Positions 7,553-23,646 of a stretch of DNA of 64,000 nt are shown piece after piece. Each line of letters begins with the position of its first letter. The first letter of the stretch is position 1. The stretch covers positions 4,247,573 through 4,311,572 of the forward strand of contig CP016211.1 of the NCBI GenBank assembly GCA_001931535.1, in the 5' to 3' direction. The position numbers and the translations under genes were made by a program. Source of the stretch: Minicystis rosea. Its GTDB lineage: Bacteria > Myxococcota_A > Polyangia > Polyangiales > Polyangiaceae. The notes under the pieces are model-generated. The model made no database searches. It had not been told where the DNA came from and saw only the letters and a list, made by a program, of their open reading frames with translations.

Positions 7553-7954
7553 ATGCAACGCTTCTCGTGGAAGTGCCACGGACCTCTTCTGCCCATGCTC
7601 GCGGCCCTCCAGCCGTATCATTGCCTCGCCGAGGCGCAGCTCGCCGACGTGCTGCTCGCCGAGGCGCGCATCGACGAAGCGCTGGAGCACGCATCCTCCG
7701 CGGCCGCGCGCCTCGAAACGTTAGGCACGATCGACGAGGGCGAGAGCCTCGTGCGCGTGGTCTACGCGGAGGCCTTGCGCGAAAACGGCGACGATGTCGG
7801 TTTCCGTGCCGCGCTCGCCACCGCACACGCACGGCTGCTCACGCGCGCCGCGCGCTTCCATCAAGACGCTGAGCGGCGCCGCTTTCCGGAGAACATCCCC
7901 GAGAACGCGCGTACCCTCGCGCTCGTCTCGCGCTGGTCGTCGTCGGCAGCCTGA
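7553..7954 (+). pseudogene. Gene remnant encoding only the C-terminal about 130 aa of a paralog of the kinase/AAA/TPR protein at 34343..38239.
   Basis: LGTIDEGESLVRVVYAEALRENGDDVGFRAALATAHARLLTRAARFHQDAERRRFPENIPENARTLAL parallels the C-terminus of the 1298-aa kinase, LGSIEDGEALVRLVHVEALAASGDREAFSRAATLARRRLLARAARIGDPAWRERFLTAVPENAQTLVL. There is no upstream kinase/AAA coding sequence. Confidence 0.45.
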
Positions 7955-8157
7955 CCCGGGCGCGGCTCGCGGCGCGTCGTGGAGCGCGGCCCGTCCTCGG
8001 GTGATTCGCGCGTCGCGGCCCGAGCGGAAGCTCGGCGTTGCGCGCGGCGAGCCTCCGATCAATAACGGGCCGCCCCGGGAGGCGCACGAGGGGCCGTCAT
8101 GTGGTGCACCGTGAAGACTGAGGAGCGTTCGGGAAAGCGGCCGCGGAGAGCGGGCGC

Positions 8158-10068
8158 ATGATCGTCCCTCAGCCCGGTGTCGTCATCGCGGGGAGGTACA
8201 CGCTCGTACGCCCTCTCGCGCGCGGCGGCATGGGCTCGGTCTGGATCGCGCACCACCGCGATCTCGAGGTCGACGTCACCGTGAAGTTCATGGCGCCGTC
8301 GCTCGTCGCGTCGCCCGATGCGCGCCTCCGCTTCGAGCGCGAGGCCAAAGGAGCGGCGCGGATCCGCAGCCAGCACGTGGTCCAAGTCCACGACTACGGC
8401 GTCGAGGACGAGACCCCTTACATCGTGATGGAGCTGCTCAAAGGCGAGAGCCTGTGGACGCGGCTCGCGCGGGAAGGTCGGCTCCCGCTCCCCGTCACGG
8501 CGCGCCTGCTCGTCCAAATCTGCAAGGCCCTGCGCACCGCACACGAGGCAGGCCTCGTGCATCGCGATCTCAAGCCCGGCAACATCTTCCTCGCGCTCAA
8601 GGACGACGACGAGGTGGTGACGGTCCTCGATTTCGGGATCGCCAAGACCTCGGGCATCGGCGACGCCACCGCCGACACCGACTCCGGGGTTCTGCTCGGC
8701 TCCGTGCACTACATGAGCCCGGAGCAGATCCGCAATTCACGCAAGGTCGATCTGCGCAGCGATCTCTGGGCCATCGGCGTCATCCTGTATCGCACGCTCG
8801 CCGGCCGCCTGCCCTTCCCCGGCGAGAACGTAGGCGACGTGCTCGTGCGCGTGTGCACCGATCCATGGCCCGCTCCGTCGACGATCTGCTCCGATCTCCC
8901 ATCACGGGTCGACGCGTTCTTCGAGCGCGCGCTGGCGCGTGATCCCGAGCGACGCTTCCAGTCCGCGCCGGAGATGGCCGAGGCCTTCAGCGCCATGGCG
9001 CTCGAAGCGGACGCCCCCGCATCGTCGGCCGCGCCCGCGCCGCCCTTCGTGGCCACGCCACCGGCCGCGCCCGCGCCGCCGGCATCGCAGCCACCGCCCT
9101 GGAGCCAGGTGGCACCGGCGAGCGCGCCCGCGCCTCGAGAAGCGGGCACGATGCGCATGAGCTCCGCCACCGCCGCGCAAGCAGCGCCGGCCTTCGCCCC
9201 GCAACGCGCAGCCTCGTCGCCCTCGATCGCACCGGCGGAGCCCATCGTGCCAGCGACGGCGCCCGCTCCGCCCACCTTCGCGCCGCCCACGCCGAGCGCC
9301 GGAGGGCGTTCGCTCCACGGCACCCTCATTCCCGCGCGCAGCGCCGTGGCCCAGCCCGCTCCGAGCCCCTTCGCGCAGGCCGCCCCGCCCCAACCCGCGC
9401 AACCGACTCAAAGCACCTTCGCGCCAAGCACGCTCGCGCAGGCCTCTCGAGACACTTTCTCGCCATCCACGCCGGCGCCGCAAAGCAACCTCGCTCGAAG
9501 CTCCTTCGACGAGCTGCCTCAAAGCACCTTCGGGCAAAGCACGCTCGCGCCGGCGCCGCAAAGCACCTTCGCGCCGCCCCCGCAGAGCACCCCGGCGCTG
9601 TCGATGCCAATCCCCAGCGCCCGCCCCGGCTCGAGCCCGATGCTCGCGCCGCCGAGCGAGCGGCCATCTCGCGTTCCTGCATCGGAGACGCTCCCCAAGC
9701 GCTCGTCCTCGCGCACCGTCGGCCTGGCGCTGGCGGCGACGGCGATCCTCGGTGTCCTCGGCGCCGCCATCCATTTCTCGGGCACATCACGCAGCGCCGC
9801 CACCGCGAGCACCGCTCCGCCGCCGGCCGCCACCCCGGCGCCGCCATCCGCCACCGCCGCGCCGCCGGCCGCCACCCTCGCACCAACGGCGAGCGCCACG
9901 TCCGAAGCCGAGCGCGCCACGCCTCCCACACCGAGCGCCACAGCGCTCTCCTCGGCGCCGGAGCCGCGCGCGCCCGAGCCCCCCAAGCGAGCCCCCACCG
10001 CGCCTACCGGTGCGCCGGCCAAGCCACCGTCGAAGCCGCGCAACAACCTCTTGGATCGCGCCGACTGA
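8158..10068 (+). CDS. Ser/Thr protein kinase (Hanks-type) with a Pro/Ala-rich linker, one TM helix and a Pro/Ala/Thr-rich C-terminal tail.
   Basis: The glycine loop reads LARGGMGSVW. The VAIK-like site reads VTVKFM. The catalytic loop reads HRDLKPGNIF, followed by DFGIAK and SPEQ. Imperfect QSTFAPSTLA repeats follow, then the TM segment VGLALAATAILGVLGAAIHF. Confidence 0.85.
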   Translation: MIVPQPGVVIAGRYTLVRPLARGGMGSVWIAHHRDLEVDVTVKFMAPSLVASPDARLRFEREAKGAARIRSQHVVQVHDYGVEDETPYIVMELLKGESLWTRLAREGRLPLPVTARLLVQICKALRTAHEAGLVHRDLKPGNIFLALKDDDEVVTVLDFGIAKTSGIGDATADTDSGVLLGSVHYMSPEQIRNSRKVDLRSDLWAIGVILYRTLAGRLPFPGENVGDVLVRVCTDPWPAPSTICSDLPSRVDAFFERALARDPERRFQSAPEMAEAFSAMALEADAPASSAAPAPPFVATPPAAPAPPASQPPPWSQVAPASAPAPREAGTMRMSSATAAQAAPAFAPQRAASSPSIAPAEPIVPATAPAPPTFAPPTPSAGGRSLHGTLIPARSAVAQPAPSPFAQAAPPQPAQPTQSTFAPSTLAQASRDTFSPSTPAPQSNLARSSFDELPQSTFGQSTLAPAPQSTFAPPPQSTPALSMPIPSARPGSSPMLAPPSERPSRVPASETLPKRSSSRTVGLALAATAILGVLGAAIHFSGTSRSAATASTAPPPAATPAPPSATAAPPAATLAPTASATSEAERATPPTPSATALSSAPEPRAPEPPKRAPTAPTGAPAKPPSKPRNNLLDRAD

Positions 10069-10087
10069 TCGAGCAAAAGGCCATGTG

Positions 10088-11020
10088 ATGCGCCAACTCC
10101 TCTGGCTCCCGGCGATCTTCCTCTGGACGCTCGTGCCCGCGGGCGCGCGCGCCCAGACCATCAGCCCCGAGGTCCACGCCCACGCGGAAGACACCTTCCG
10201 GCGCGGGCGCGACGCCTTCAACCAAGGTGAGTACAAGTCCGCGCTCCGGCTCTTTCGCACGAGCCAAGAGCTCGAAGCGGGCCGCGGCAAGCTCATCAAC
10301 ATCGCTTTTTGCGAAGAGAAGCTCGGCCTCGTGGCGTCGTCCGACAAGCACCTTCGCGAGGTCTTGCCGCAGCTCCCTACGGACGATCCGCGCATCGCGC
10401 TCGTGCAGCAGCACCTCGCCGAGCTTGCGCCGCGCATTCCTCATCTCCGCATCGTCCTCGCGGCCGGCGCGCCGCCCGGCACGCGTGTCAGCTACGATGA
10501 CACGCCCCTTCCCCAAACCTCGCTCGGCACCGAGATGGCCGTCGATCCAGGCACGCACGTGGTCAGCGCAAGCGCCCTCGGAAAACCGGAGAAGCGCTAC
10601 GAGGTGATCCTCGAAGAGGGCAAGCTCGTCGCCCTCACCGTCGATCCCGTGAACGCCGCACCACCACCGCCGCCGGCCGTCGCGCCGCCCTCGAACGAGA
10701 AGCGCACCGCCGGCTTCATCGTCGGAGGCTTCGGCGTCGCCGGCCTCGCCGCGGGCGCGGCCACGGGCATCGTCGCGCTCGTCGATCACGCCGCGATCGC
10801 GCGCGAGTGTCCCTCGCGCGTCAATTGCAGCCCCGAAGTCGTGCGCAAAGCCAACACCGGAAAGGCCTTATCCATCGCCAGCACGGCGACGTTCGCGGCG
10901 GGCGCCGCCGCCGTCGGGGTCGGGCTCTATCTCGTGCTCTCGAGCCGCTCACGCCCAACCACGGTGGGGATCTCGATCCTCCCCGACGGCGGACGCCTCG
11001 GCATCCAGGGGACTTACTGA
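10088..11020 (+). CDS. Secreted TPR-like/PEGA-domain protein with a C-terminal TM anchor.
   Basis: The signal peptide reads MRQLLWLPAIFLWTLVPAGARA. A TPR-like N-terminus follows (FNQGEYKSALRLF). The PEGA-like segment reads VSYDDTPLPQTSLGTEMAVDPGTHVVSASALG. A hydrophobic stretch AGFIVGGFGVAGLAAGAATGIVALV sits near the C-terminus. The ATG is 20 nt after the kinase stop. Confidence 0.7.
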   Translation: MRQLLWLPAIFLWTLVPAGARAQTISPEVHAHAEDTFRRGRDAFNQGEYKSALRLFRTSQELEAGRGKLINIAFCEEKLGLVASSDKHLREVLPQLPTDDPRIALVQQHLAELAPRIPHLRIVLAAGAPPGTRVSYDDTPLPQTSLGTEMAVDPGTHVVSASALGKPEKRYEVILEEGKLVALTVDPVNAAPPPPPAVAPPSNEKRTAGFIVGGFGVAGLAAGAATGIVALVDHAAIARECPSRVNCSPEVVRKANTGKALSIASTATFAAGAAAVGVGLYLVLSSRSRPTTVGISILPDGGRLGIQGTY

Positions 11021-11021
11021 C

Positions 11022-12386
11022 ATGAACCGAGCAAGCTGGAAGAGCTTCGGTCTCCTGATCCTTCCCACAGCCTGGGCCGGGTGCATCGCGCTCGAATGGG
11101 ACTACCGGGAAACATCTTCGTCCTCATCGTCCTCGTCTTCGTCGTCCTCGTCTTCGAGCGGCACCCCCAACGAATGCACCGGCGCCCCCGACGAAGTCGC
11201 ATGCGGCGTGGTCGGGCGCGTCTGTCGCAACGAGCAATGCGTCTGCGCGCAGGACGAGTGTGGCGGCCAATGCGTCGATCGGAACACGGATCCGAGCCAT
11301 TGCGGCAGTTGCGCCAACGCCTGCGGCAAGGGCATGACCTGTGTCGCGGGTGAATGCCAGTGCGGCCTCGGCCAATCGAAGTGCGACGGCAAGTGCGTGA
11401 GCACGGACAGCGACCCCGATCATTGCGGCGCCTGCAACCACGGTTGCCAGGGTGGAAAATGCGCGAGCTCGAAATGCGAGCCGCTCGTGCTCGCCAACGG
11501 GCAGACCGCGCCGGCCGGCATCGCCGTCGATGGTCAAAACGTCTATTGGACCAACTTCGGCAGTGGAACGGTGATGGCGATTCCCGTCGGTGGCAACGAC
11601 AACATGCCCACCACCTTGGCCGCGCCCGCGCCCGACGCCGGGCCTGCCGGCATCGCGGTCCAAGGCAATACGGTGTTCTGGGTGAACTACACCGCAGGCA
11701 CGGTGATGAGCGTACCCACCGGCGGCGGCCTATCCACCCCCCTCGCCACTGGGCAGAACAAGCCTTCCAGCATCGCCGTCGACGGCACCTACGTGTATTG
11801 GACCAACTATGGTGACGGCACCGTCATGAAGGTGCCCACGAAGAACGCCTCGGCCCCCGTCCCCCTCGCTTCGGGGCAGAGCTTTCCGCCGAAGCTCATC
11901 GATTCCGTGACGAGCGCCGTGCAGGGCCTCGCCGTCGACGGCACCCACGTCTATTGGACCAACTACGGTGACGGCAGCATCCGCAAAGTGGCCCTCGAGG
12001 GCGGCTCGGTGACGGCGATCGCCGAGAAGCAGAACAACCCTCAATGCCTCGCCGTGAACGGCACCAACGTCTATTGGACCAACCGGATCAGTGACTCGGA
12101 CGGCGCCGTCATGAAGGTCGCCACGAGCGGCGGTGAGCCCATCGTCCTCGCCGCCGGGCAGAGCGGCCCTTATGGCATCGCTTCGCAGGACCTGGCCGGC
12201 GTCTTCTGGACGAACAACAACCTCACCTTCGACAGCGGCACGGTGGCATCCGCGCCCCTCGCCGGCGGCGTCCACGTCTTCGTCGCCTCGGCACAAGCCC
12301 TCCCGACCGCCGTCGCCGTCGACGGCACCAGCGTTTACTGGCTGAATCACAACTTCGGCGGCTTCATCATGAAGGTCGCGAGATAG
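11022..12386 (+). CDS. Lipoprotein with a poly-Ser linker, a Cys-rich module and a six-bladed YWTD-type beta-propeller.
   Basis: The lipobox reads LLILPTAWAGC. Sixteen Ser are encoded by a tcgtcctcgtcttcg repeat. About 22 Cys follow in CxxC/CGxC patterns. Repeated blades read VYWTNFG, VFWVNYT, VYWTNYG (twice), VYWTNRI and VFWTNNN. The start is 1 nt after the previous stop. Confidence 0.75.
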   Translation: MNRASWKSFGLLILPTAWAGCIALEWDYRETSSSSSSSSSSSSSSSGTPNECTGAPDEVACGVVGRVCRNEQCVCAQDECGGQCVDRNTDPSHCGSCANACGKGMTCVAGECQCGLGQSKCDGKCVSTDSDPDHCGACNHGCQGGKCASSKCEPLVLANGQTAPAGIAVDGQNVYWTNFGSGTVMAIPVGGNDNMPTTLAAPAPDAGPAGIAVQGNTVFWVNYTAGTVMSVPTGGGLSTPLATGQNKPSSIAVDGTYVYWTNYGDGTVMKVPTKNASAPVPLASGQSFPPKLIDSVTSAVQGLAVDGTHVYWTNYGDGSIRKVALEGGSVTAIAEKQNNPQCLAVNGTNVYWTNRISDSDGAVMKVATSGGEPIVLAAGQSGPYGIASQDLAGVFWTNNNLTFDSGTVASAPLAGGVHVFVASAQALPTAVAVDGTSVYWLNHNFGGFIMKVAR

Positions 12387-12387
12387 C

Positions 12388-14199
12388 ATGCACGTCGTCT
12401 CCGCCTCTCCGCTCCGCGTCGCCTCGATCGTCTTTCAGCCGCGCAGAGGTGCCTTTGCGCTCACCGTCGTGTGCAAAGCCACCTTCCAGCTCGAGCCCGA
12501 CGTCTGCCGCCTCGCCGTCGCGCAGGAGGATCCGATCCAGGACGACATTCTCGGTGAGAGCGGCCTGCGCGCGCCGAGCGATCTCGTGCCCATGAAACCG
12601 CGCGCGGACGTCATCCTCGTGGGTCACGCCTTCGCTCCGGGAGGGCAGCCTGCGCGCACGGTGCGCGCGAGGCTCGTCGTGGGCGAGATCGACAAGTCCA
12701 TCGACGTCTTTTGCGATCGCATCTTTTGGCAGGACGGCCGGTTGCTCGAAGGACAGCCCTTCACCCAAATGCCAATCTCCTACGGGCGCGCCGCGTTCGG
12801 CCCGGAAAACCCGGCCGGCGTGCGCTTCGACGCGCCGCCCGACGCGAGCGGTGCGGTGCGGATTCCCAACCTGCAGCCCCAAGGCAGCCACATCGCCCGT
12901 CGCGGAGATACGTTTGCGCCCGTCGGATTCGGCCCCATCGCGCCGAGCTGGCCGGGCCGCGTGGAGAAGCTTCGACAGCACGCGGGCACGTGGTCGTTGC
13001 GGAGCCTCCGCGAATGGCCGCTCCCCGCCGAAATCGATCCTTCGTTCTTCAACGTCGCGCCGCGCGATCAACAGATGGAGGCAATTCAGCCCGACGAGCG
13101 GATCATCCTCGAAAACCTGTCCCCCGCTGCACCTCGCCTGGAGACGTGCCTGCCCGGCATTCAGCCCATCGCGCGCATGACGGCCGGCGGCCGGGCCGGC
13201 GAAGGGATGGCGCTCGTCGCCGACACGCTCACCATCGACACCGATCGATCCATCGTCACCGTGGTGTGGCGCGGGCGCGTGCCGCTCAACCACCCTGACG
13301 AATCCGGGCAGTTGGTGGTGACGATGGAAGGCGGCGACCTCCCCGGCGGCACAGCCATCCTCGGCGGCGAGGCCCACCCCGGCACCGTGCAGCTCGGCCC
13401 GGGCGGCGTCGCTCCTCCGATGCGAACGCCGTTTGCGGCCCCTTCGGGTGAAATCGAAACGCTCCTCGGCGGCAGCGGTGGTGGCCCAGCATTGCCGTTC
13501 ACCGCCGCCGGCAGCCCGTGGGTGGGTTTTCGCCCCAAGCCCCCTCCACCCAAGGACGCACCGCTGTCCGAGGGCACCGGCACGGTCTACGGCGTCAAGG
13601 GAAAGGCCAGAGACGTGCTGCCTTTCCCGGACGCCGCGCCCCGCGTCCCTCCGAGCGCGGCATTCGCACCGATGATCGATGTCGTGACGCCCGAGCCGCC
13701 CGCCCCGGAGGTGCGTGAGCCCGAGGCCCCGGAAACGCCTCCCCCACCCGAGCCGGAGCCGACGCCCAAAGCCGACATCGACATCTCGATCGAGCTTTGC
13801 GCGGCAATCCAAGCCTCCATCGACCGAAGCGGCGGGCAGAAGAAAGAGGTCTTGGAGAAACACGCTCTCTCCGACGACGTCTGGTCGGCCGCCGCCCAAC
13901 GCTGGGAAGCCGACATCGACACGGATGTCGAGCAGGGCAAAACCGATCTGCTCCAACGCTACGACGCGGCCTACATCGCGCAGATCGAAGAGGAGCGCGG
14001 GCCGATTCGACCCGAGGATTACGCGCGCCTCTCCGTCGCGGCGGAGCGCGGCACCACCGACGCCGTCCTCACCGAGCTCTCGATCCCCGAAGAGGCCGAG
14101 ATGCGCCTCGAGCGCGTTTGGCTCGACAAGGTGCTGCGCAGCCCGGCGCTCGCCAAACAGGTGCGCGAAGCGCGGGCCAAGGCCAGCGCCGAGGCCTGA
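12388..14199 (+). CDS. DUF2169 domain protein (T6SS-associated family) with an acidic/Pro-rich C-terminal half.
   Basis: The N-terminal core reads VASIVFQPRRGAFALTVVCKATFQLEPDV...DVILVGHAF...PVGFGPIAPSWPGR...FFNVAPRDQQ. It shares the (V/A)KATF / KGTF signature with the genes at 14204 and 45932. The ATG is 1 nt after the upstream stop. Confidence 0.75.
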   Translation: MHVVSASPLRVASIVFQPRRGAFALTVVCKATFQLEPDVCRLAVAQEDPIQDDILGESGLRAPSDLVPMKPRADVILVGHAFAPGGQPARTVRARLVVGEIDKSIDVFCDRIFWQDGRLLEGQPFTQMPISYGRAAFGPENPAGVRFDAPPDASGAVRIPNLQPQGSHIARRGDTFAPVGFGPIAPSWPGRVEKLRQHAGTWSLRSLREWPLPAEIDPSFFNVAPRDQQMEAIQPDERIILENLSPAAPRLETCLPGIQPIARMTAGGRAGEGMALVADTLTIDTDRSIVTVVWRGRVPLNHPDESGQLVVTMEGGDLPGGTAILGGEAHPGTVQLGPGGVAPPMRTPFAAPSGEIETLLGGSGGGPALPFTAAGSPWVGFRPKPPPPKDAPLSEGTGTVYGVKGKARDVLPFPDAAPRVPPSAAFAPMIDVVTPEPPAPEVREPEAPETPPPPEPEPTPKADIDISIELCAAIQASIDRSGGQKKEVLEKHALSDDVWSAAAQRWEADIDTDVEQGKTDLLQRYDAAYIAQIEEERGPIRPEDYARLSVAAERGTTDAVLTELSIPEEAEMRLERVWLDKVLRSPALAKQVREARAKASAEA

Positions 14200-14203
14200 T
14201 GTC

Positions 14204-15322
14204 ATGCCCACGAAGCGTGCTCCCGCGATCCCCGATCCGCGCCTGCAAACGATCAAGAACCTGACGCCGTTCGCCCTGTTCCAATGCGACAAGATGGGTG
14301 TCGGCCGCCGCTTTTACGATACGGTGACCGTCAAAGGCACCTTCGATTTGAAGCCGGGCTGCATGGAGCTCGCCCGCGAGCAGGCTCCAGTCCTGCTCGC
14401 GGACGATTATTGGGATCTGGAAACGCCCGAGCGCTCGAGCGTGAAGCGCGCCGGCGACGCGGTGCTCATCAAGCCCAGCACCGATGTCATCCTCACAGGC
14501 AGCGTGCATACGCCCGCAGGGAAGGCGCTCCGCGAATGGGACGCTGCCGTCCTCATCGAAGGACGCCGCGGCAAGGTCATCGACTACAGCGTTCAGGTCA
14601 CCGGACCACGCGTGTGGCGATACACCAGCACCCGCGGCTTCTCGCTCACGGATCCCGAGCCCACGGAGGAGGTTCCGATCCGTTACGAGCTTGCCTATGG
14701 CGGCGCCTACCTCGACCCGCGAAATGCTTCTCCCGAGGGCGATCCCAAGTGGATCGTCCACGAGCCCAACCCGAGCGGCACGGGCTTCTGTGACGAGCGC
14801 GCGCTGAGCCCAAACGAGCCCTACCGCGCACCACAATGGCAATCTCGCCTCGCGCCCGTGACGTCGCTCAACCACGATGTGCCCGTGTGCGGATTCGGCC
14901 CCATCTCCCGGCCCTGGAGCTCGCGCCTCCGCTACCAAGGCACCTGCGACGACGCTTGGGAGCAGGAGAACCGCGAGGCCGTCGCCAAAGGCCTTCCCGC
15001 CGACTATCCGGCCGACTTCGACGCTCGTTATTTCCAATGCGCGCATCCCTCCTTGATTGCCCCCGAGCACCTCGCGGGCGACGAGCACCTGGCCCTGGGT
15101 GGGATCGTCGCCGGTGAGGCTCGGTTCGTCACAGAGCTCCCTGGCATCGCCGTCGCGGCGCGCCTCCTCGACGGCTCCGGCGCATGGCACGACGAGCGGA
15201 TGCCGCTCGACACGGTGCACATCGATTTGGATGCAGGCGCCGTCCACCTGTGCTTTCGTCTCACCCTCGATCAAGCGCGCGACATCCTGGCGGCGGTGAT
15301 TTACACGACGGAGGCAACATGA
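14204..15322 (+). CDS. DUF2169 domain protein (second paralog).
   Basis: TPFALFQCDKMGVGRRFYDTVTVKGTFDLKPG...DVILTGSVHTP...VCGFGPISRPWSSR...YFQCAHPSL...LDTVHIDLDAG. The track ORF 13715..15322 begins inside the upstream gene. The ATG at 14204 follows the upstream stop by 4 nt. Confidence 0.75.
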   Translation: MPTKRAPAIPDPRLQTIKNLTPFALFQCDKMGVGRRFYDTVTVKGTFDLKPGCMELAREQAPVLLADDYWDLETPERSSVKRAGDAVLIKPSTDVILTGSVHTPAGKALREWDAAVLIEGRRGKVIDYSVQVTGPRVWRYTSTRGFSLTDPEPTEEVPIRYELAYGGAYLDPRNASPEGDPKWIVHEPNPSGTGFCDERALSPNEPYRAPQWQSRLAPVTSLNHDVPVCGFGPISRPWSSRLRYQGTCDDAWEQENREAVAKGLPADYPADFDARYFQCAHPSLIAPEHLAGDEHLALGGIVAGEARFVTELPGIAVAARLLDGSGAWHDERMPLDTVHIDLDAGAVHLCFRLTLDQARDILAAVIYTTEAT

Positions 15323-15669
15323 GCGAATCGCGACACATCGCCGATGCCGAAGCCGAGTTCCAAGTCGTCAACGTCACCCCCGACTTCTGCAAAGTGAACG
15401 GCAAGCGGGTGGCGTTCGACATCTTTCGGGATCTGACACCGCAGCGCGTGAACTATGCGAAGAAGGTCAGAGCGCGCGGCGTCCCCGTGCTGACGGTGGA
15501 CAGCGTCGTCGCCGGCGTGGTGGGGAACATGGGAGAGGGTGTGTTCTCGGGCGTGTCGAAGAGCTCGGGAGACGTGATCGTCGTTCAAGGCGTGGAGAAC
15601 GTCCGGGCCGAGCGCCGCTACGTGTGCCGAGATCAGGACATCTGTCTCATGAACGTGAAGGTGGGGTGA
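15319..15669 (+). CDS. PAAR-like protein (DUF4150 family) of 116 aa.
   Basis: GGAGG sits 5 nt before the ATG. The ATGA overlaps the previous stop. TPDFCKVNGKRVAF and GEGVFSGVSKSSGDVIVVQGVENV...NV resemble the DUF4150 (PAAR-like) PDVCKTP...GDEAG...GGV.S pattern. Confidence 0.6.
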   Translation: MSESRHIADAEAEFQVVNVTPDFCKVNGKRVAFDIFRDLTPQRVNYAKKVRARGVPVLTVDSVVAGVVGNMGEGVFSGVSKSSGDVIVVQGVENVRAERRYVCRDQDICLMNVKVG

Positions 15670-16634
15670 TGGCCGGCGCCCCCGACGACACCCTCGGTGG
15701 CTTGCTCCCACCGAGCTTCTCGAGCACCTTCCTGGCCAATGGCACCTTTGGGCGGATACGCACCGCGACCTGCCTCAAAGACGAGACCTACGAGCAGGGG
15801 CGAGCGCGTGAAGCGCTGGAGATCGCCGAGGAGCGATATCGCGCCGGCGGCCTCACCGGCCAGCAATCGCTACAACTTCGCGAGGAGATCGATCGCCTCT
15901 CCAAGATCGCTCGCCCCGGAATGGCCAACGCGTGGCCGCCGCTGAACGAAGCGGAGGTGCAAGCCATCGCGGACCAGCGGCGCGCCCTCAACACCGTAGG
16001 CATCTTTGCGGCCGGTCCGGTGATGGGCGCGCTCCCCGCGGCCGCGCGCATCGCCGGCGCCCCCGAGCCGGTGGTGGAAGCAGCAGCCCAGATCAACTTC
16101 GATCTGGCCACCTCCGGTGCCCTACACGGGCTCCCCAAAGGCACCGCCGAGCCGATCCCGATGGCGCGCACGATCACGGGCACGTACATCGAGCCGCACG
16201 TCGGAAAGCGCATCATCAAGATCAACGTCGATGCGTTCGCAGAGGGGCGCAACTTCCGCGACACCAACCAGGAGGCCCGCTCGCCCGAGGCCCGCGATCC
16301 CAACCGGGAGACGCCCATCGCCGAGCGCGTCAAGGCCAAGGAGGAGGCTTATTTCCTGAAGAAAGGCGAAGAAAGAGCGTTTCCCAACGGCAACATGGCG
16401 ACCGCACACGCCGAGATCGGCGCGCTCCAGCAGATCAACGAGGCCGGCCTCGCCAAAGGCAACGACATCCTCATCATCGTCTCGGGGGAGCGCGACGTGT
16501 GCTCTTTCTGCGTAGGCGACATCGCCGCCATGGGGCGCGAGATCGGCGCGCGCTCCATCACGGTCATCGACGTCTATCAAGGCAAGACCTTCTTCTGGAC
16601 AGAGGGCATGAGATCCATCGGAGATCCCCACTGA
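15669..16634 (+). CDS. Predicted T6SS-delivered polymorphic toxin. The N-terminal region is of unknown function. The C-terminal domain is a nucleic-acid/nucleotide deaminase (CDA fold).
   Basis: The start overlaps the PAAR-like stop (TGATG). Near the C-terminus the sequence reads NMATAHAEIGALQQINEAGLAKGNDILIIVSGERDVCSFCVGD. This places HAE 28 residues before CxxC, the zinc-deaminase signature (HAE at 16407-16415, CSFC at 16500-16511). Gene context: DUF2169, DUF2169, PAAR-like, toxin, then a small downstream ORF. Confidence 0.6.
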   Translation: MAGAPDDTLGGLLPPSFSSTFLANGTFGRIRTATCLKDETYEQGRAREALEIAEERYRAGGLTGQQSLQLREEIDRLSKIARPGMANAWPPLNEAEVQAIADQRRALNTVGIFAAGPVMGALPAAARIAGAPEPVVEAAAQINFDLATSGALHGLPKGTAEPIPMARTITGTYIEPHVGKRIIKINVDAFAEGRNFRDTNQEARSPEARDPNRETPIAERVKAKEEAYFLKKGEERAFPNGNMATAHAEIGALQQINEAGLAKGNDILIIVSGERDVCSFCVGDIAAMGREIGARSITVIDVYQGKTFFWTEGMRSIGDPH

Positions 16635-16647
16635 CAGGAGCATCCGC

Positions 16648-17061
16648 ATGAGCACCATGAGACTGTCGTGGGGTTTCGATCCCGGACCCAAAGCACGCGC
16701 CGAGCACCTGGCAGCGCCCACGTGGGCCGATGTCGAGGACAAGCTCGCTCGGCTCGCCGCCGCCCATACGGGCTCCATCAAGCTCGAGCTCCAACCGGCC
16801 CCCACGCTGGGCCCGCAGAGCCTCCAAGCCATCGCGGAGAATGGCACCTACCTCGTCATGCTGGGCGAGATGATCGAAGTCGACGGCGACGTCGATCACA
16901 ACGTGCGCACGCTCTACGATGCTTCCGCTACGCCGGGAAAGACGCTGATCATGGGCGATTTCTGGGACGCGCGCCAAACGTCGCGGGAGCCGGCCGTCGT
17001 GCGCGACGTCTTCAAAGACTTCTTCGAGACGGGCGACGTCTCCGCAGACAAGCTCTCTTGA
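16648..17061 (+). CDS. Putative cognate immunity protein (137 aa, cytoplasmic, acidic).
   Basis: It sits 13 nt downstream of the deaminase gene on the same strand and is of immunity-protein size. It contains LIMGDFWD with a conserved-looking Trp. The assignment is by position only. Confidence 0.45.
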   Translation: MSTMRLSWGFDPGPKARAEHLAAPTWADVEDKLARLAAAHTGSIKLELQPAPTLGPQSLQAIAENGTYLVMLGEMIEVDGDVDHNVRTLYDASATPGKTLIMGDFWDARQTSREPAVVRDVFKDFFETGDVSADKLS

Positions 17062-17171
17062 TGACGGGTTGTGCGGATGGCGCGCGGCGCGTTGCCCAGC
17101 GAAGGTGGCGAGTCGAGCGCGCGCACGATTGACCGAGAGAGCGGTGCACGGCCGCTCTCTCGGTCACATCT

Positions 17172-19490
17172 TCAGTTGAGGTCGATCGGATCGCCGATGA
17201 CCTGAACCTTGCCGCCTTGGAGCAGGGCGTCGGCTTCGGCCTTCACGGAGACCGCCTTCCCATCCACCTTCACCGAGTCCTTGCCCTTGACGATGATCTC
17301 GGTGCCTTCGAGCGTGATCTTCCCCGAGCTCTCCATCACGATCTTGGCCTTACCGCACTTGATCTCGATCTTCTTCCCGGCTTTGACGCTCTTCACGAGC
17401 CCGACCATCTCGTTGCTCATGAGGCCGACGGTCGTGCTCATGGCGCCGCCGACGGTCACCGAGTACATGCCGCCGACGGTCAGCGATTTGGCGAGGCCTA
17501 CCTTTTCGCTCGAGGCCTTTCCAACCGACTCGCTCTTCTGACCGCCGATCTTCACGCGCTGGCTCTTGCCGACCTTGACGCTCTCGTTCACGCCGACGAC
17601 GCGCGTGCGGCTCTTCCCCACCGTCTCGCGCTCGCTCCCCTTCACCTGCTTCACGCGGTCTTTGCCGATGGAGATCTCTTCGTCGTTCGCCACCACCTTT
17701 TGGCGATCGTGACCGATGACGACGGACTCGTCGTTCTTCACGAGCTTCTTCCGGTCGTGCTCGATGGTGATGGCCTCGTCGTTCTGGACGAGCTTCTGCC
17801 GATCGTGCGCGATGACGATGGTCTCGTCGTGGTTCACGATCCGCGTGCGATCGTGCTCGATCGTGATCTTCTCGTCGTGCTCGACCTTCTCCGTCCGGTC
17901 GTGGCCGATGGTGATGGTCTCGTCGTGCTTCACGAGCTTGTCGAGATCCTTCTCGGCTTGGATGTAGATCTGCTCGCGCCCCTTCGCGTCCTCCAAACGG
18001 ATCTCGTTGAAGCCGCCGCCGCCCGGGGAGGATTGGGTCTTCCACCCGCTCTGCGTCTTGTTGGCCGGCAAGGCGTAAGGCACGCGCTGCGTGGCCGTGT
18101 AGACACGGCCGGTGATCACGGGCCGATCCGGATCGCCGCCGAGGAAGTCGACGAGGACCTCCTGTCCGATGCGCGGCACGTTGATCATGCCGAAGCCGCC
18201 CCCGCTCCACGGGTGGCTCACGTGGATCCAACAAGAGCTGTTGTCATCCATCCGGCTCTCGCGATCCCAGTGGAAGTGCACGCGCACGCGCCCGAGCTCG
18301 TCGGTGTGGATCTCTTCGCCGGCGGGGCCGACCACCGTGGCGCTCTCCACACCGGAGATCTTCGGCCGCGGCGTCACGAGCGGCGGGCGGAAGGGCTGAT
18401 CCGTGCGGCGCGCCTCGCAACGATGGGTCCAGGCGCCGTCGTGCGTCCCGCGATGCGACGACTCGACCACGAGCACGGGCTTGCCTTTGCCGAGCTCGGC
18501 GCGCGGATGATCGAGGATGTCGAGCACCACCCCGGGGGCGAGATCGATGGCGTTGGTGTCGAACGAGCACACGCGCGCGCCGGCCCGCTTCGCTTCGAGG
18601 CGCTTCTTCGCGACGGACGCGCCCTCGCGCTCGTCGGTGCGCGTGCGGCCCTTGTCGTCGCCGAAGGGCGCGTCCCCCGCGGGCTCGGCGCCGAAGCTGA
18701 ACGCGCCGGGCACGTAGTGGAACCGCTCGAGCTTCGACTCCAGCCCGGCCTCCGGCGCGGAGGCCGCGGCGAGAAGCGCGTAGCCCGCGGGCAGGCGCGG
18801 GTCGTGATCGCGCACCGTGTAGCGGCCCGGGCGCACGCGTTGCCCGACGCGCACCTCGGTGACGTACTCGCGCGCGACGGCGCGGGTGGGTTTGTCTTCG
18901 AAGTGGAGGGACGGCCGAGCCTCGCCGGATTGCGGCGCGTCCGAGAGCACGAGGCGCGTCTCGGAGTCGCCCTGCTCGAAGAAGAACGAGATGCCCGCCT
19001 CCTCCAGCATCCGCGAGACGAAGGCGAAATCGGACTCGGCATATTGCACGCGATACTCGCGCTTCTTGTAGGTGCCCGAGATGCGGAGCTCGGGATCGAC
19101 GCCCCATTCCCGCAGAATCTTGCGCGCGATGTCGAGCTCGGAGAGCTGCTGGAACATGCGGTGATTGCGCCGCTGCGTGCTGAGCCAGAGGGCTGGGACG
19201 ATGTGAAGCTGATACGTCGAGAGGCCGGCCTCGGAGACCGCGACCTGCTGGATGTCCTTGCAGATCCCCGTCCAGAACCGGGTCGAGGAGAGCGCCGCCG
19301 TGCCGCCGTGCATGAGGAAGCTCGCCGGCCGGCCCACCACCGCATCGAAGTCGATGTTGGCCTGATCGGAGACCGCGACGATGACGATCTCGAAGAGCGC
19401 CGACATGCGCTCCTCCACCGCGAAGCTCCGGACGTCGAGCGCGTCACCGGAGTCGACGCGGACCACGAGGTTGCGCAGAGCGGCTGTCAT
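17172..19490 (-). CDS. vgrG: VgrG, the type VI secretion spike protein (Phage_GPD plus gp5-like C-terminal beta-helix repeats).
   Basis: The N-terminus MTAALRNLVVRVDSGDALDVRSFAVEERMSALFEIVIVAVSD is typical of VgrG. Also present are QLHIVPALWLSTQ..., the central GPD region and WIHVSHPWSGGGFGMINVPRIGQEV. A C-terminal array of 16-aa repeats (HDRTEKVEHDEKITIE, HDRTRIVNHDETIVIA, and so on) is encoded by DNA repeats at about 17600-17960. The start was chosen at the internal Met 19490 (the track start is 19607). Confidence 0.85.
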   Translation of the reverse strand: MTAALRNLVVRVDSGDALDVRSFAVEERMSALFEIVIVAVSDQANIDFDAVVGRPASFLMHGGTAALSSTRFWTGICKDIQQVAVSEAGLSTYQLHIVPALWLSTQRRNHRMFQQLSELDIARKILREWGVDPELRISGTYKKREYRVQYAESDFAFVSRMLEEAGISFFFEQGDSETRLVLSDAPQSGEARPSLHFEDKPTRAVAREYVTEVRVGQRVRPGRYTVRDHDPRLPAGYALLAAASAPEAGLESKLERFHYVPGAFSFGAEPAGDAPFGDDKGRTRTDEREGASVAKKRLEAKRAGARVCSFDTNAIDLAPGVVLDILDHPRAELGKGKPVLVVESSHRGTHDGAWTHRCEARRTDQPFRPPLVTPRPKISGVESATVVGPAGEEIHTDELGRVRVHFHWDRESRMDDNSSCWIHVSHPWSGGGFGMINVPRIGQEVLVDFLGGDPDRPVITGRVYTATQRVPYALPANKTQSGWKTQSSPGGGGFNEIRLEDAKGREQIYIQAEKDLDKLVKHDETITIGHDRTEKVEHDEKITIEHDRTRIVNHDETIVIAHDRQKLVQNDEAITIEHDRKKLVKNDESVVIGHDRQKVVANDEEISIGKDRVKQVKGSERETVGKSRTRVVGVNESVKVGKSQRVKIGGQKSESVGKASSEKVGLAKSLTVGGMYSVTVGGAMSTTVGLMSNEMVGLVKSVKAGKKIEIKCGKAKIVMESSGKITLEGTEIIVKGKDSVKVDGKAVSVKAEADALLQGGKVQVIGDPIDLN

Positions 19491-19642: not shown

Positions 19643-20548
19643 CTACGCGCCGGCGAGGATGCGATCGCGCTGCTTCCGGTAGTCGACCTCGGCACCGATG
19701 GTGATTTGCGCCGCGGGAACGCGCGCACGGCTCACGAGACAACGCGAAGCGCCTCCCGCCTTCTCGCACAGCTCACGCATCGGAAGGAGGGTGACGCCGA
19801 GCCCCCAAGAGCGCATGAGATCCACGATGCGCAGAGGTGTGAGATGCGGCGCCAACACGTCGCGACCGACCGGCAGGCCGTTGGTCGCATAGAGCCTGAT
19901 CTCGTCGACGCTCACGGGCACGAGCGCGTCCGCGCCGAAGGCCCGCTCGAGCTGGGCCACGCCGTCGCCCGCGATCACCTCGGGGCACACCAGGATCTTG
20001 CCCACCGTTTCGAGCGGGAGCGCGGCCATGTTGCCGTGAAAGGCCGGTTGCTTGCACTCGAGGACGATCGCGTCGGCCGGGAACCAGGGTCGCACGGCGT
20101 CGAGCCCGGCGCGATCGGTGCGCCCGCCGAAGAACAGCAGCGTGCGCCCGCGCAGCTCGGCGACGTCGCCCTGCGCCTCCCAGAGGCCCGCGGGCAGATC
20201 GATGGGCCGGAGGCCGAGCGACGCGACGACGGGGCGCCACAGGTCGCGCTCGCGCACGCGATGAGGCGCGAACATGTTGGGCAGGAGGAACACGAGCTCG
20301 CCGTCGCGCTCGACCACCTGCCCGCATTCGGCCGCGTATGGCAGGCCGGTGAGCTCGGTGTCGGGCGGCGGGACGAGACACACCACGCGCCCTCCGCGCG
20401 CCTCGATGGCATCGGCGAGCCCAACCCACTCGCGGATCGCCGCGCGCGCATCGACGGGCGCGGCCGCCTCGCTGCGGAAATTGGCCCGGCCGCGAAGCCG
20501 CCACGTCGGCGCCGGCGGCGACATCAGGTAGAGATCGATCGCGTCCAT
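19643..20548 (-). CDS. Amidinotransferase-superfamily protein (DDAH/arginine-deiminase-like pentein fold).
   Basis: From the internal Met, MDAIDLYLMSPP... runs about 301 aa. A C-terminal GGASRCLVS matches the GGxxxC(M/L)(S/T) catalytic-Cys motif of this fold. The gene lies 36 nt upstream of vgrG on the same strand. The first 107 codons of the track ORF are low-complexity. Confidence 0.55.
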   Translation of the reverse strand: MDAIDLYLMSPPAPTWRLRGRANFRSEAAAPVDARAAIREWVGLADAIEARGGRVVCLVPPPDTELTGLPYAAECGQVVERDGELVFLLPNMFAPHRVRERDLWRPVVASLGLRPIDLPAGLWEAQGDVAELRGRTLLFFGGRTDRAGLDAVRPWFPADAIVLECKQPAFHGNMAALPLETVGKILVCPEVIAGDGVAQLERAFGADALVPVSVDEIRLYATNGLPVGRDVLAPHLTPLRIVDLMRSWGLGVTLLPMRELCEKAGGASRCLVSRARVPAAQITIGAEVDYRKQRDRILAGA

Positions 20549-21011: not shown

Positions 21012-22160
21012 CTAGATCGTCAGCTCGTTCTCGATCTTGGAGAGCTGGTGGCGCGCCAAACCGAGGTTGCCGCGCTTGCGGTCGATGACGACGTAGAAGA
21101 AGAGCGACGTCCCGCCTTTTCGGAGCGGCCGGATGATGTGGTATTGCTTGCCCAGCGTGATCAGGAAGTCCTCGATGATGTCATCGAGCTTGAGCGCCTC
21201 GGCGACACGCATCTTGGCCCGGACGACCTCGGTGTTGCCCGCGGCGGCGACTTCGAGATCGAGGTTGGCACCGCCGCCCGCCGTGCCGAGCGTCATGCCG
21301 CTCTGCCAGTCCACGAGCGCGGCTCCGAGCGCGCCCTCGATCTCCATCGATGCCCGGAGGCTCTGCTGAATGGTCGCCATGTCGAACTCCTGTTGTCTCT
21401 TGTGGGCCTTGGTTGCTTCCTGAGCGGGGAGCAGCTCGATGTCCGCTTCCACGCCCAACATCTCCCAGTGCGCCGGCGAAGCCGCCGCGCTCTCCTCATC
21501 CCGGTACCGCGCCGATTCGAGCAAAAGGAACGAGAGTGGTTGGGTGATCGTCACCCGCTCCACCGGCACGGTGCCCAACACTTCGAGCGAAGTGTCGGGC
21601 AGGGAAAAGATCTCCATCGCTGCGGCGTCGCCCTGCGCTTCCACGGTGCGCGCGTCGATCAACGCTCCCTTCTCGAAGATGAGCGTCCCCGAGCCCGCGG
21701 TCGACGTGACGCGCAGCGCGCAACTCTGCTGCTCGACCTGAAGGAGCTGCACGAACCCCGCGATGGTCACCCCGCTCACGCGGGAGCGCGGGAGCTGGAG
21801 CATGCGCTCCACCGTTTGATGGAGCATGCCGAGGTCGATTGGCTTGTCGAGGCACGCGAGCGCGCCCAGCTCGCCCAGCGAGACGCGTGTCTCGTCGGTC
21901 GCGTGGGCCGAGACCACGATGACCTGCACGGGTAAGCGATGCGCGGCCACGTGCGCGACCAGATCGAGGCCGCTCCGCCCGGGCATTTGGAGATCGGTGA
22001 CGAGGACGTCGATGACCTCCCGCCCCAAGATCTCGAGCGCCTCGGTGCCCGTCGCCGCATCGAGGATTCGCACGCTCTTGAAGCGGGCGCGCAGACTGTC
22101 GACCGCGCTGGTCCGAAAGAGCGATTCGTCGTCGGCTACGAGGATGGTCCTGAGGGCCAT
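21012..22160 (-). CDS. Response regulator receiver plus DUF4388 plus a roadblock/LC7 (MglB-like) domain protein.
   Basis: The REC domain reads ILVADDE...DVLVTDLQMPGRSG...VIVVSAH. The DUF4388 segment reads GFVQLLQVEQQSCALRVTSTAGSGTLIFEKGALIDA. The roadblock-like C-terminus reads AAGNTEVVRAKMRVAEALKLDDIIEDFLITLGKQYHIIRP. Confidence 0.75.
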   Translation of the reverse strand: MALRTILVADDESLFRTSAVDSLRARFKSVRILDAATGTEALEILGREVIDVLVTDLQMPGRSGLDLVAHVAAHRLPVQVIVVSAHATDETRVSLGELGALACLDKPIDLGMLHQTVERMLQLPRSRVSGVTIAGFVQLLQVEQQSCALRVTSTAGSGTLIFEKGALIDARTVEAQGDAAAMEIFSLPDTSLEVLGTVPVERVTITQPLSFLLLESARYRDEESAAASPAHWEMLGVEADIELLPAQEATKAHKRQQEFDMATIQQSLRASMEIEGALGAALVDWQSGMTLGTAGGGANLDLEVAAAGNTEVVRAKMRVAEALKLDDIIEDFLITLGKQYHIIRPLRKGGTSLFFYVVIDRKRGNLGLARHQLSKIENELTI

Positions 22161-22233
22161 GCCGACGCCTCGAGCATGCGTCGTGCCGATCCGAGATCGC
22201 CTGAAATTCAGAGCCGCGCGGAGGCGCGCCGGA

Positions 22234-23646
22234 TCAAAGTGATCGCTCCGACGGATCGATTTGGTCGCTTACCACTCCATACTCGCGCAGCTTGCGCCGG
22301 AGGGTCGCGACGGAGACGCCGAGCGCGCGCGCCGCATGGGCGCGGTTGCCGCGCGAGCTTTCGAGCGCGGCGAGCACGTGCCGGCGCTCCAGCTCCGCGA
22401 GCGGGACGATCCCATCGTCACCGCGCGGCGGCGGGACCCGAGCGGTGTCCGTCCGCACGAGCGCGCCGTCGTCGATCGGCGGGGCCGATTCGGGAGCGCG
22501 ACGCGCGAGCAGCACCGAGGGCCGCAGAGGGCCCGGCCCCTGCAACACGAGGGCACGCTCCAGCACGTTGCGCAGCTCGCGCGTGTTGCCCGGCCAATCA
22601 TGGGCGGCGAGCGCGGCCAGCTCACCGTCCGCGAGCGTCGCGCCGCGCCCGCCGGTGAGCTGATCGAGCAAGTGCGCGCACAGCTCGGGCAGCTCCTCGA
22701 TGCGATGGCGGAGCGGCGGAAGATCGAGGCGCACGACGTTGAGGCGATAATAGAGATCGGCCCGCAGCGAGCCGCGCGTCACCGCCGTCTCCACATCCGC
22801 GTTGGTCGCCGCGATGATGCGAACCTCCACACGTCGCGGACGCGCGCCGCCCACGCGCCGCACCCAGCCCTCTTCGAGCGCCGTGAGCAGCTTGGCTTGG
22901 ATGGGCGCGTCGAGCTCGCCCACCTCGTCGAGGAAGAGCGTGCCTCCATCGGCCAGCTCGAAGAGCCCCTCGCGCGTCTGGCACGCGCCGGTGAACGAGC
23001 CGCGCTCCGATCCGAAGAGCTCGCTCTCCACGAGCCCCACCGGCAACGCGGCGCAGTTCACGTGCACGAACGGCCGCGAGGGCGATCCTTCCGCGTGAAT
23101 CGTCCGCGCGATCAGCGTCTTGCCCGTGCCCGTCTCACCGGTGATCAAGACCGGCGCGCGCACGTGCGCCGCGCGCGTGATCGTCTCGCGCAGCACGGCG
23201 GTCGCCGTGCTCCCGCCCAAGACGATGTCGCGACGCTCTGCGCTCCTGCGATGCTCGTCGGTGCCTTCACTCGAGATGGGCTCGAATTGGCGGAGCCCCC
23301 GGCGCACGGCCGCAGTGAGGACCGCGAGATCGACCGGCTTGGACAGGTAATCGAAGAGCCCGAGGCGGAGCGCCGCCACCGCGTTGTCGAGCTCCGGAAA
23401 GCCGGTGCACAGAATCACCTTCACCCGCGGATGCGCGCGAATCAGCTCGGGCACCAGCGACAGCCCGTCACCACCTTCGATGCGATTGTCGATGACGACG
23501 ACGGGGAACCCTTCGGTGGCGCGCGCCCGCGCTTCGTGGGCCGAGTGGGCCGGGACGACCGTGATGCCCTCGACGGCCAGCGCATCGACGAGCGCATCGC
23601 AGAAGAGGTCGTCGTCGTCGACGACGAGGATGCGGCGCGCGCTCAC
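22234..23646 (-). CDS. Sigma-54-dependent response regulator (NtrC family; REC, AAA+ sigma54-interaction and Fis HTH domains).
   Basis: The REC domain reads ILVVDDDDLF...VVVIDNRIEGGDG. The Walker A reads GETGTGKTLIA. The ESELFGSERGSFTGA (GAFTGA-like) loop is present. The C-terminal HTH reads RAHAARALGVSVATLRRKL. A 4-nt overlap with the upstream kinase indicates an operon. Confidence 0.9.
   Translation of the reverse strand: MSARRILVVDDDDLFCDALVDALAVEGITVVPAHSAHEARARATEGFPVVVIDNRIEGGDGLSLVPELIRAHPRVKVILCTGFPELDNAVAALRLGLFDYLSKPVDLAVLTAAVRRGLRQFEPISSEGTDEHRRSAERRDIVLGGSTATAVLRETITRAAHVRAPVLITGETGTGKTLIARTIHAEGSPSRPFVHVNCAALPVGLVESELFGSERGSFTGACQTREGLFELADGGTLFLDEVGELDAPIQAKLLTALEEGWVRRVGGARPRRVEVRIIAATNADVETAVTRGSLRADLYYRLNVVRLDLPPLRHRIEELPELCAHLLDQLTGGRGATLADGELAALAAHDWPGNTRELRNVLERALVLQGPGPLRPSVLLARRAPESAPPIDDGALVRTDTARVPPPRGDDGIVPLAELERRHVLAALESSRGNRAHAARALGVSVATLRRKLREYGVVSDQIDPSERSL

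Follow-up and report, generated by a model that had tools for sequence, protein, structure and literature searches.

In a 64-kb window of the Minicystis rosea genome (the whole stretch of DNA that was analysed; ~69% G+C), a compact set of plus-strand genes, comprising two DUF2169 genes, a stand-alone PAAR-like gene, a deaminase toxin gene and a DUF6911 gene, converges on an orphan vgrG, and we conclude that this island is very probably an auxiliary effector-loading module of a type VI secretion system (T6SS) whose apparatus is encoded elsewhere in the 16-Mb genome. A first-pass annotation of the same DNA had proposed an auxiliary T6SS effector island at this place, and that reading is upheld by hidden Markov model (HMM), structure-prediction and comparative evidence. 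The locus is a cargo-effector module of the known VgrG/DUF2169/PAAR-like kind; what is new in it is the split between tip and toxin, a dedicated N-terminal domain on the toxin (here called the N-domain) and an extra, long DUF2169 protein.

We propose that the convergent VgrG would form the spike, to be capped by the 116-aa PAAR-like (PIPY-type) protein, and that the short DUF2169 protein (DUF2169-B) would act as a TvpA-type chaperone, keeping the hydrophobic tip loadable. The 321-aa toxin would be a cargo effector whose helical N-domain may dock non-covalently on the PAAR-like/VgrG tip, its gene probably being translationally coupled to that of the tip. After firing, the C-terminal Deam_C domain would deaminate cytosine in the nucleic acid of the recipient, most probably DNA, leading to toxicity or mutagenesis, while the acidic DUF6911 protein would bind the deaminase and so protect the producer and its kin. 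The domain identities, the intact catalytic motif, the deaminase fold and the linkage of Deam_C with DUF6911, and of the PAAR-like gene with the N-domain and DUF2169-B, are the observations set out below; from them we infer the physical contacts in this scheme, the substrate and the dependence on a T6SS.

Organisation of the island

The gene coordinates, the packed junctions and the spacing from vgrG are all as first annotated (Table 1). The long DUF2169 gene (DUF2169-A) ends 4 nt before DUF2169-B begins (14199/14204); DUF2169-B overlaps the PAAR-like gene in an ATGA (15322/15319), which in turn overlaps the toxin gene in a TGATG (15669/15669), and a 13-nt gap separates the toxin from the DUF6911 gene (16634/16648). 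Upstream, two further plus-strand genes are joined to DUF2169-A through gaps of 1 nt each (11020/11022 and 12386/12388). The tight junctions of the seven-gene operon that had been proposed are real, but such an operon would combine T6SS genes with genes for two exported proteins of another kind. The ends of the DUF6911 gene (17061) and of the convergent vgrG (17172) are 110 bp apart, and the perfect inverted repeat between them is probably a bidirectional terminator hairpin, a function read from its position alone. At third codon positions the G+C content is 0.81-0.90 in those open reading frames (ORFs) that a coding filter retained, DUF2169-A, vgrG and the immunity gene among them. The translated toxin gene has 100% identity with the hypothetical protein A7982_03648 of M. 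rosea, for which NCBI annotates a start one codon further upstream; a look-up of the exact toxin sequence gave no hit.

Table 1. Features of the M. rosea island and the genes flanking it, in window coordinates
Feature	Position	Strand	Family match or remark
DUF2169-A, long form, 603 aa	12388-14199	+	Pfam PF09937
DUF2169-B, short form (TvpA-like), 372 aa	14204-15322	+	Pfam PF09937
Stand-alone PAAR-like (DUF4150/PIPY-type) protein, 116 aa	15319-15669	+	PF13665 below cut-off, with 8qjc_A profile match
Putative toxin, 321 aa (whole gene)	15669-16634	+	
Toxin N-terminal domain, residues 1-177	15669-16199	+	Shared with ~22 representative clusters
Toxin C-terminal zinc-deaminase domain, residues 178-321	16200-16634	+	Pfam Deam_C
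DUF6911 immunity candidate, 137 aa	16648-17061	+	PF21852
vgrG, orphan T6SS spike gene, 772 aa from ATG at 19490	17172-19490	-	TIGR03361
Perfect 15-bp inverted repeat, 7-nt loop	17130-17166		Between convergent DUF6911 gene and vgrG
Gene upstream of vgrG, weakly DDAH/ArgZ-like	19643-20548	-	Sub-threshold similarity
Ser/Thr kinase gene	8158-10068	+	
Signal-peptide/TPR membrane protein gene	10088-11020	+	
Cys-rich lipoprotein-like beta-propeller gene (MXAN_6577-like)	11022-12386	+	

The VgrG spike, its probable tip and the DUF2169 proteins

The vgrG gene had been called full-length, and its product scores far above the curated cut-offs of TIGR03361 (E 2.6e-146, 488 bits; cut-off 186) and TIGR01646 (353 bits; cut-off 122), with the Pfam domains Phage_GPD, Phage_base_V and Gp5_trimer_C; by its sequence, with gp27-like and gp5-like domains, it is assigned to the T6SS VgrG (TssI) family. 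Alternative starts lie at 19529 and 19607. Because these T6SS-specific VgrG models score so strongly, an origin of the spike from an extracellular contractile injection system (eCIS) or a phage tail was ruled out. Among the loci used for comparison (numbered with an L), the closely related metagenomic locus L001 has an orthologous VgrG that is likewise convergent, and L088 has, immediately upstream of a DUF2169-B-type gene and co-oriented with it, a VgrG C-terminus akin to residues 596-746.

Both DUF2169 proteins, recognised from the outset as paralogues, match PF09937 (E 2.7e-68 for DUF2169-A and 1.1e-68 for DUF2169-B, both ~231 bits; cut-off 25) and the DUF2169 crystal structure 8vth_A (E 4e-7 and 6e-10, respectively), which assigns both to the predicted DUF2169/TvpA chaperones. 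With only 26% identity between them, they are paralogues of old standing rather than the outcome of a recent duplication. DUF2169 proteins are chaperones required for formation of the VgrG-PIPY/DUF4150 spike (Sachar 2025, PMC11883445) and define three Tvp classes (Monlezun 2026, PMC13373197). DUF2169-B lies next to the DUF4150/PIPY gene and is linked to vgrG; in L001-L003, L005, L087 and L088 its orthologues immediately precede the PAAR-like gene, a place taken in L092 by a DUF2169 gene for a 374-aa protein. Pfam scans of the island proteins found none of the accessories of Tvp classes II and III (DUF6484 or DUF3540 TvpC, PRK06147/thiolase-like TvpD, pentapeptide-repeat TvpB), apart from one weak DUF6484 match inside the OB-fold of VgrG, and the island appears to belong to neither Class II nor Class III.

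The PAAR-like gene had been annotated as DUF4150, and this was only partly borne out by HMM: the match to PF13665 spans nearly the whole profile (positions 5-103 of 108, E 1.2e-5) but falls below the cut-off. A profile built from five PAAR-like orthologues matches 8qjc_A, a T6SS Rhs effector, over its PAAR-like N-terminus (residues 2-119; E 6.5e-6), and the orthologues in L001-L003, L087 and L088 give an unmarked PF13665 match (E <= 1e-5), that of the others being weak. Because of the sub-cut-off match to the full model, the 8qjc match and its RVAF motif, we regard the protein as a probable divergent member of the DUF4150/PIPY group.

In DUF2169-A the family domain (residues 21-295) is followed by a Pro-rich linker and a ~145-aa C-terminal region, and no Pfam match was found in the C-terminal 149 residues (455-603). 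As a member of an island, this long form was seen only here and in L001, which has two orthologues. The chance is only a little short of even that DUF2169-A does not belong to the module but assists VgrG spikes of Minicystis-like genomes in general or in some separate capacity, serving, for example, a different PAAR protein, and is merely adjacent to the genes studied here. Long forms do occur in other settings: one of the two in L001 is beside a second VgrG (VgrG2) and a canonical PAAR (PAAR_motif) gene, L087 has a C-terminal fragment of one on the opposite strand, and a third gene in the window itself (45932-47911, +, ~659 aa; PF09937 E 5.5e-60, 33% identical to DUF2169-A) is solitary, Pfam scans of its neighbours having found no VgrG or PAAR genes. 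In addition, L088 has no long-form gene between VgrG and the DUF2169-B-type gene, and DUF2169 and DUF4150 are present 1:1 in >80% of genomes (PMC11883445). Membership of DUF2169-A in the module is suggested, on the other hand, by the 4 nt that separate its stop from the start of DUF2169-B and by the order DUF2169-A, DUF2169-B, PAAR-like gene, which is retained in L001, though L001 comes from a close relative.

The Deam_C domain and its DUF6911 partner

The zinc-deaminase signature first noticed at the C-terminus of the toxin is confirmed by a match to PF24241 (Deam_C) with an E-value of 7e-34 and 117 bits (cut-off 27; E 5.8e-33 in a separate scan), and by the zinc/catalytic motifs AHAE and CSFC. 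An alignment of 32 family members shows the motifs DxNQxAR, PNGNM, AHAE and CxxC to be invariant or almost so, and the M. rosea toxin keeps all of them, as it does every family-invariant residue. The structure model of the domain has a pLDDT (predicted local distance difference test) of 95.5, and a Foldseek search with it returned only proteins of the cytidine deaminase (CDA) fold, at E >= 0.03 and TM values of 0.4-0.5. The HMM score above cut-off, the H(A)E...CxxC motif and the modelled cytidine-deaminase fold place the domain in Deam_C, with fold and active site established.

None of the characterised deaminase toxins belongs to this family. To MafB19-deam, Pput2613-deam and dCMP_cyt_deam_1 the domain gives sub-threshold matches only, and PDB sequence searches with the toxin and with a deaminase profile gave none at E < 0.05, merely marginal matches in the HAE/CxxC region. 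It appears to fall outside the DddA-like (BaDTF1), SsdA-like/DYW (BaDTF2) and DddB/MsddA-like (BaDTF3) families: DddA-DddI of Burkholderia cenocepacia, SsdA of Pseudomonas syringae and DddB represent these other sequence families, whereas the M. rosea domain is significant for PF24241 only, and the Deam_C family has its own invariant motifs (the DxNQxAR and PNGNM named above) as well as its own immunity family, DUF6911. Literature searches on the names PF24241 and DUF6911 gave no papers on a characterised member of either.

The ORF downstream of the toxin, which had been singled out as an acidic immunity gene, encodes a protein with an isoelectric point of 4.7 that matches PF21852 (DUF6911; E 1.4e-25). 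A scan of species-representative genomes (one genome per species) for the pattern N[GA][NS]Mx[TD]AHAE yielded 83 loci, mostly of Pseudomonadota, with Pseudomonas, Serratia, Enterobacter, Erwinia, Pantoea, Photorhabdus, Xanthomonas and Neisseria among them; no Myxococcota were among the 83, and M. rosea, although it fits the pattern, was also not returned, perhaps because its genome was absent or masked, so that the lack of Myxococcota calls for caution. When these loci were taken together with the other loci examined, a DUF6911-like ORF was found immediately downstream of 87 of the 93 Deam_C ORFs, starting within ~100 nt (in one case at ~260 nt), and the six Deam_C ORFs that lack such a partner are mostly truncated fragments. 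These ORFs come from ~80 genomes, in which the deaminase forms the end of Rhs-type and other carriers. DUF6911 also follows Deam_C in L004 and L089, the L004 example coming after an Rhs gene. Since the DUF6911 gene follows in 87 of 93 cases, we consider the two to be a toxin-immunity pair, and since the loci from the pattern scan contained no DUF2169, PAAR-like or N-domain genes, the Deam_C/DUF6911 cassette would be a mobile pair that has been joined to different delivery systems.

By analogy with DddA, SsdA and DddB, the predicted substrate of the deaminase is most likely cytosine in DNA. It is possible, though we think it rather unlikely, that the substrate is instead RNA (tRNA, rRNA or mRNA), free cytidine or nucleotides. 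The figures for the matches of the deaminase model were 9.8 for a PPR-DYW RNA editor, 9.2 for DddB/BaDTF3, 8.0 for TOD6, 7.9 for cytidine deaminase, 7.2 for DddA and 7.1 for SsdA, and the characterised interbacterial deaminase toxins in this list (DddA, SsdA and DddB) have DNA substrates. Likewise, in a screen of 175 enzymes (10.1101/2023.06.29.547047) DNA activity, where it was detectable, came almost entirely from toxin families, MafB19 and Pput2613 among them; our domain has sub-threshold similarity to the Pfam models of these two, and the authors of the screen state that the Pfam MafB19-deam profile differs from the Iyer profile which they had used.

A shared N-domain linked to PAAR-like tip genes

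An exhaustive search with the toxin over 1.84 billion representative proteins gave 253 relatives at E <= 0.001, and the best 150 of these were examined. Among these best 150, 127 cover residues ~180-320 only, lying C-terminally on carriers of 79-4902 aa, and ~22 cover residues ~12-175 only, in proteins of 131-414 aa. The first-pass annotation had recognised nothing in the N-terminal 240 aa; this holds in so far as neither Pfam nor NCBIfam gives the N-domain a significant match, but the deaminase begins near residue 180 and the part before it is related to the ~22 clusters. The N-domain homologues bear other C-terminal toxin domains (Colicin_D, Ntox50, Ntox46 and GH-E), so that the N-domain is found paired with at least five different toxin domains; the M. 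rosea toxin is the only full fusion of N-domain and deaminase that was seen, P0005 having a partial N-domain with Deam_C. With a toxin domain on unrelated carriers, an N-domain on varied toxins and a downstream immunity gene, the arrangement has the sequence hallmarks of a polymorphic toxin system.

The conserved core of the N-domain (~residues 20-165) is helical. The two halves of the toxin were modelled separately because the N-domain came out misaligned when its homologues and those of the deaminase were aligned together with MAFFT. In the resulting AF2 model the helices 39-59, 64-81 and 94-114 are confident and the remainder is of low confidence, including a conserved N-terminal NGTxGRI motif and a Gly/Pro-rich hydrophobic stretch. 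A profile search with the N-domain alignment found one protein only and added little. A Pfam match to DUF7856 (E 3e-4 to 1e-3) was discarded as noise, none of 23 other scanned family members having it.

We inspected 11 gene contexts of the N-domain, on contigs that span 44-72% G+C. Besides M. rosea, six effector contexts (L001-L003, L005, L087, L088, L092 and L093/L094) have the N-domain gene starting at, or <=16 nt from, the stop of a PAAR-like gene for a 114-117-aa protein: the start coordinate of the effector equals the stop coordinate of the PAAR-like gene in four of the six, while L088 has a 4-nt overlap and L087 a 15-nt gap. In the five with enough upstream sequence (L001, L005, L087, L088 and L092) the PAAR-like gene is itself preceded by a DUF2169-B-type gene; in L093/L094 at least the PAAR-like gene and the N-domain effector are visible. 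Among the exceptions, L086 and L089 encode proteins with a partial N-domain only, and L090 offers only 589 nt upstream of the N-domain gene, in which no gene was called. From these shared neighbourhoods we suggest a conserved unit in which VgrG and DUF2169-B are joined by a stand-alone PAAR-like tip, by a cargo effector with the N-domain and by an immunity gene. The orthologous N-domain effector of L001 (10001-10966) carries a different C-terminal domain, without family assignment; 5 nt lie between the end of this effector gene and that of the convergent vgrG, which leaves no room for an immunity gene. Such a gene would have to be sited elsewhere, or else the effector is aimed at something other than a sibling bacterium.

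Whether the N-domain serves in loading, as we propose, has to be weighed against an unlikely alternative, namely that it is a translocation or membrane-entry module which takes the toxin across the inner membrane of the recipient, like the N-terminal transmembrane regions of prePAAR effectors, and which a DUF2169 protein (perhaps DUF2169-A) shields in the producer. The hydrophobic stretch, NNLGxxxGGPVFxALPAxxRxLGAPE, has, in 16 of 17 homologues, a maximal Kyte-Doolittle mean over 19 residues of 1.1-1.6 and is among the parts that AF2 modelled with low confidence; the toxin must get into the cytoplasm, a membrane-penetrating role has been proposed for hydrophobic PIPY surfaces (Sachar 2025, PMC11883445), and an extra DUF2169 protein is present. 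However, the hydropathy lies below the usual threshold of 1.6 for a transmembrane helix, with conserved Arg, Glu and Pro inside the stretch, and for this hydropathy a transmembrane reading was not adopted; the tight translational coupling to the PAAR-like gene also suits a stoichiometric partner of the tip. Roles of the N-domain in loading and in membrane entry could coexist.

Weighing the evidence for an effector-loading module

Several observations weigh against an effector-loading module as we have described it. As the first-pass annotation had stated, T6SS core genes are missing from the window: Pfam scans of every sizeable ORF in these 64 kb found none of the core families. At the tip, the PAAR-like protein scores 25.9 bits, below the Pfam gathering cut-off of 31, and the canonical P-V-P-Y aligns with V-(P/A)-F, M. 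rosea reading RVAF in place of the P(I/V)P(Y/F) of the family; none of the five PAAR-like sequences has the first proline of the motif, and Ala replaces the second in M. rosea and in one orthologue, so the protein departs from the motif of its putative group. The AF2 model of the N-domain is only partly confident (mean pLDDT 68) and its fold search matched no known fold, the best E-value being 0.38 and all matches generic helical proteins, for which reason the proposed docking role is argued from gene linkage alone. In L091 an N-domain effector (P0053) lies in an orphan array of toxin/immunity cassettes with no PAAR-like gene. Finally, the scheme gives DUF2169-A no role, and this gene is absent from L088, where VgrG is directly upstream.

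For the apparatus itself there is indirect support from the literature: metagenome bins of Minicystis are reported to encode T6SS genes (PMC11821767), and M. rosea is reported to have 61 vgrG paralogues (PMC5801462), so that the island is one among many in this organism. That it is a silent or decaying orphan among dozens of redundant vgrG loci, used by no working T6SS, might be read from the 61 paralogues, the lack of core genes in the window and the lost motif proline in the tip, but is very improbable given seven intact and tightly coupled ORFs, high third-position G+C, family-invariant catalytic residues all kept and a cognate immunity gene retained beside the toxin.

Relation to known secretion modules and toxins

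The order vgrG-DUF2169-DUF4150-toxin-immunity is an established T6SS module, for example with Tde2 in Agrobacterium tumefaciens and Tse7 in Pseudomonas aeruginosa (PMC11883445, PMC13373197), and T6SS deaminase toxins are already known, with DddA and with SsdA, which was deposited as a T6S toxin. The earlier remark that the M. rosea arrangement is not a textbook one goes too far on both these counts, but holds for the split of tip and toxin, the dedicated N-domain and the second, long DUF2169 protein, which are unusual.

Closest to the M. rosea island is Tvp Class I (synteny type B), as in the VgrG2-Tap2/Atu3641-Tde2-Tdi2 system of A. tumefaciens. Common to both are a VgrG, a single-domain DUF2169 chaperone, a PAAR-like tip, a toxin that acts (in M. 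rosea, by prediction) on nucleic acid in the cytoplasm and a downstream immunity gene, together with the lack of TvpB, TvpC and TvpD-type genes. Unlike the DUF4150-toxin fusion Tde2, the M. rosea PAAR-like protein is separate and the toxin is a cargo with its own N-domain; a second, long-form DUF2169 gene precedes that of the chaperone, giving a DUF2169 to PAAR-like ratio of 2:1 as against 1:1 in >80% of genomes (PMC11883445); vgrG is convergent and not upstream; and the toxin is a deaminase where Tde2 is of DNase type.

With the Serratia marcescens VgrG1-Paar1 system and its TvpAB/TvpB/TvpC proteins (Tvp Class III) the island shares a stand-alone PAAR protein, in M. rosea a probable one of DUF4150 type, and a C-terminally extended DUF2169 protein. 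In contrast to that system, it has neither a pentapeptide-repeat TvpB domain nor a DUF3540 TvpC, the extension of DUF2169-A has no Pfam match, and the cognate effector is obvious, being encoded beside the tip gene. A myxobacterial likeness, drawn from its description, is vgrG2-tsxE/tsxI of Myxococcus xanthus (PMC5801462), in which an orphan vgrG is accompanied by an effector-immunity pair, with the T6SS core elsewhere, in sibling or kin conflict.

We tentatively raise the further possibility, itself rather unlikely in full, that the ~145-residue N-domain marks cargo effectors of stand-alone, PIPY-divergent PAAR-like tips and serves to load them, a role not described before; that in Minicystis-like genomes, with the long DUF2169 protein, it represents a fourth Tvp organisation, of split tip and toxin with interchangeable toxins; and that Deam_C/DUF6911 is a new bacterial deaminase toxin family with a substrate preference of its own. 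The N-domain may in any case help in finding, by sequence, the cargo effectors that go with PAAR-like (DUF4150) spikes, and it suggests how a stand-alone PAAR-like tip could recruit interchangeable toxins. For other T6SS effectors, MIX, FIX and RIX are such markers. Deam_C would be a widespread and apparently uncharacterised interbacterial deaminase family, remote from DddA, SsdA and DddB; deaminases of such a kind have repeatedly been turned into tools for base editing and methylome sequencing, and the substrate and sequence context of Deam_C are worth measuring. For the myxobacteria, the island provides one concrete effector-immunity pair among the many vgrG loci of M. rosea.

Neighbouring genes

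Upstream of vgrG and on the same strand, the gene first annotated as having an amidinotransferase fold resembles dimethylargininases and arginine dihydrolases only below threshold: its product scores 50 bits against the NCBIfam dimethylargininase model (E 2e-13; cut-off 300) and matches the PDB entry for Sll1336, of arginine dihydrolase type, at E 0.002, with no Pfam match and no counterpart of the gene in the syntenic locus L001. The similarity to the guanidino-modifying enzyme superfamily is weak, and the gene may encode a second effector or be unrelated to the module.

The genes for the kinase, the signal-peptide/TPR protein and the beta-propeller precede the DUF2169 genes with gaps of 1-19 nt. 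The latter two products are exported proteins without a known T6SS role. The same order of the three genes (8158-12386 in the window) is present in L001 at 3121-6812, a synteny which may merely mirror close kinship. Around the third DUF2169 gene, at 45932-47911, lie an M16 peptidase gene upstream and an FGE-sulfatase-like ORF and a glutaredoxin gene downstream.

The L091 array (3979-9265) holds Colicin_immun, Endonuclea_NS_2/YezG-like pairs and MafI2, with a phage-type integrase adjacent, and looks like a reservoir of displaced effector modules. Adjoining the M. rosea island, a regulatory block at 21012-25217 (minus strand) encodes a DUF4388 response regulator and a sigma-54 enhancer-binding response regulator, and a 524-aa ORF at 23643-25217 on this strand resembles, to the eye, a sensor histidine kinase.

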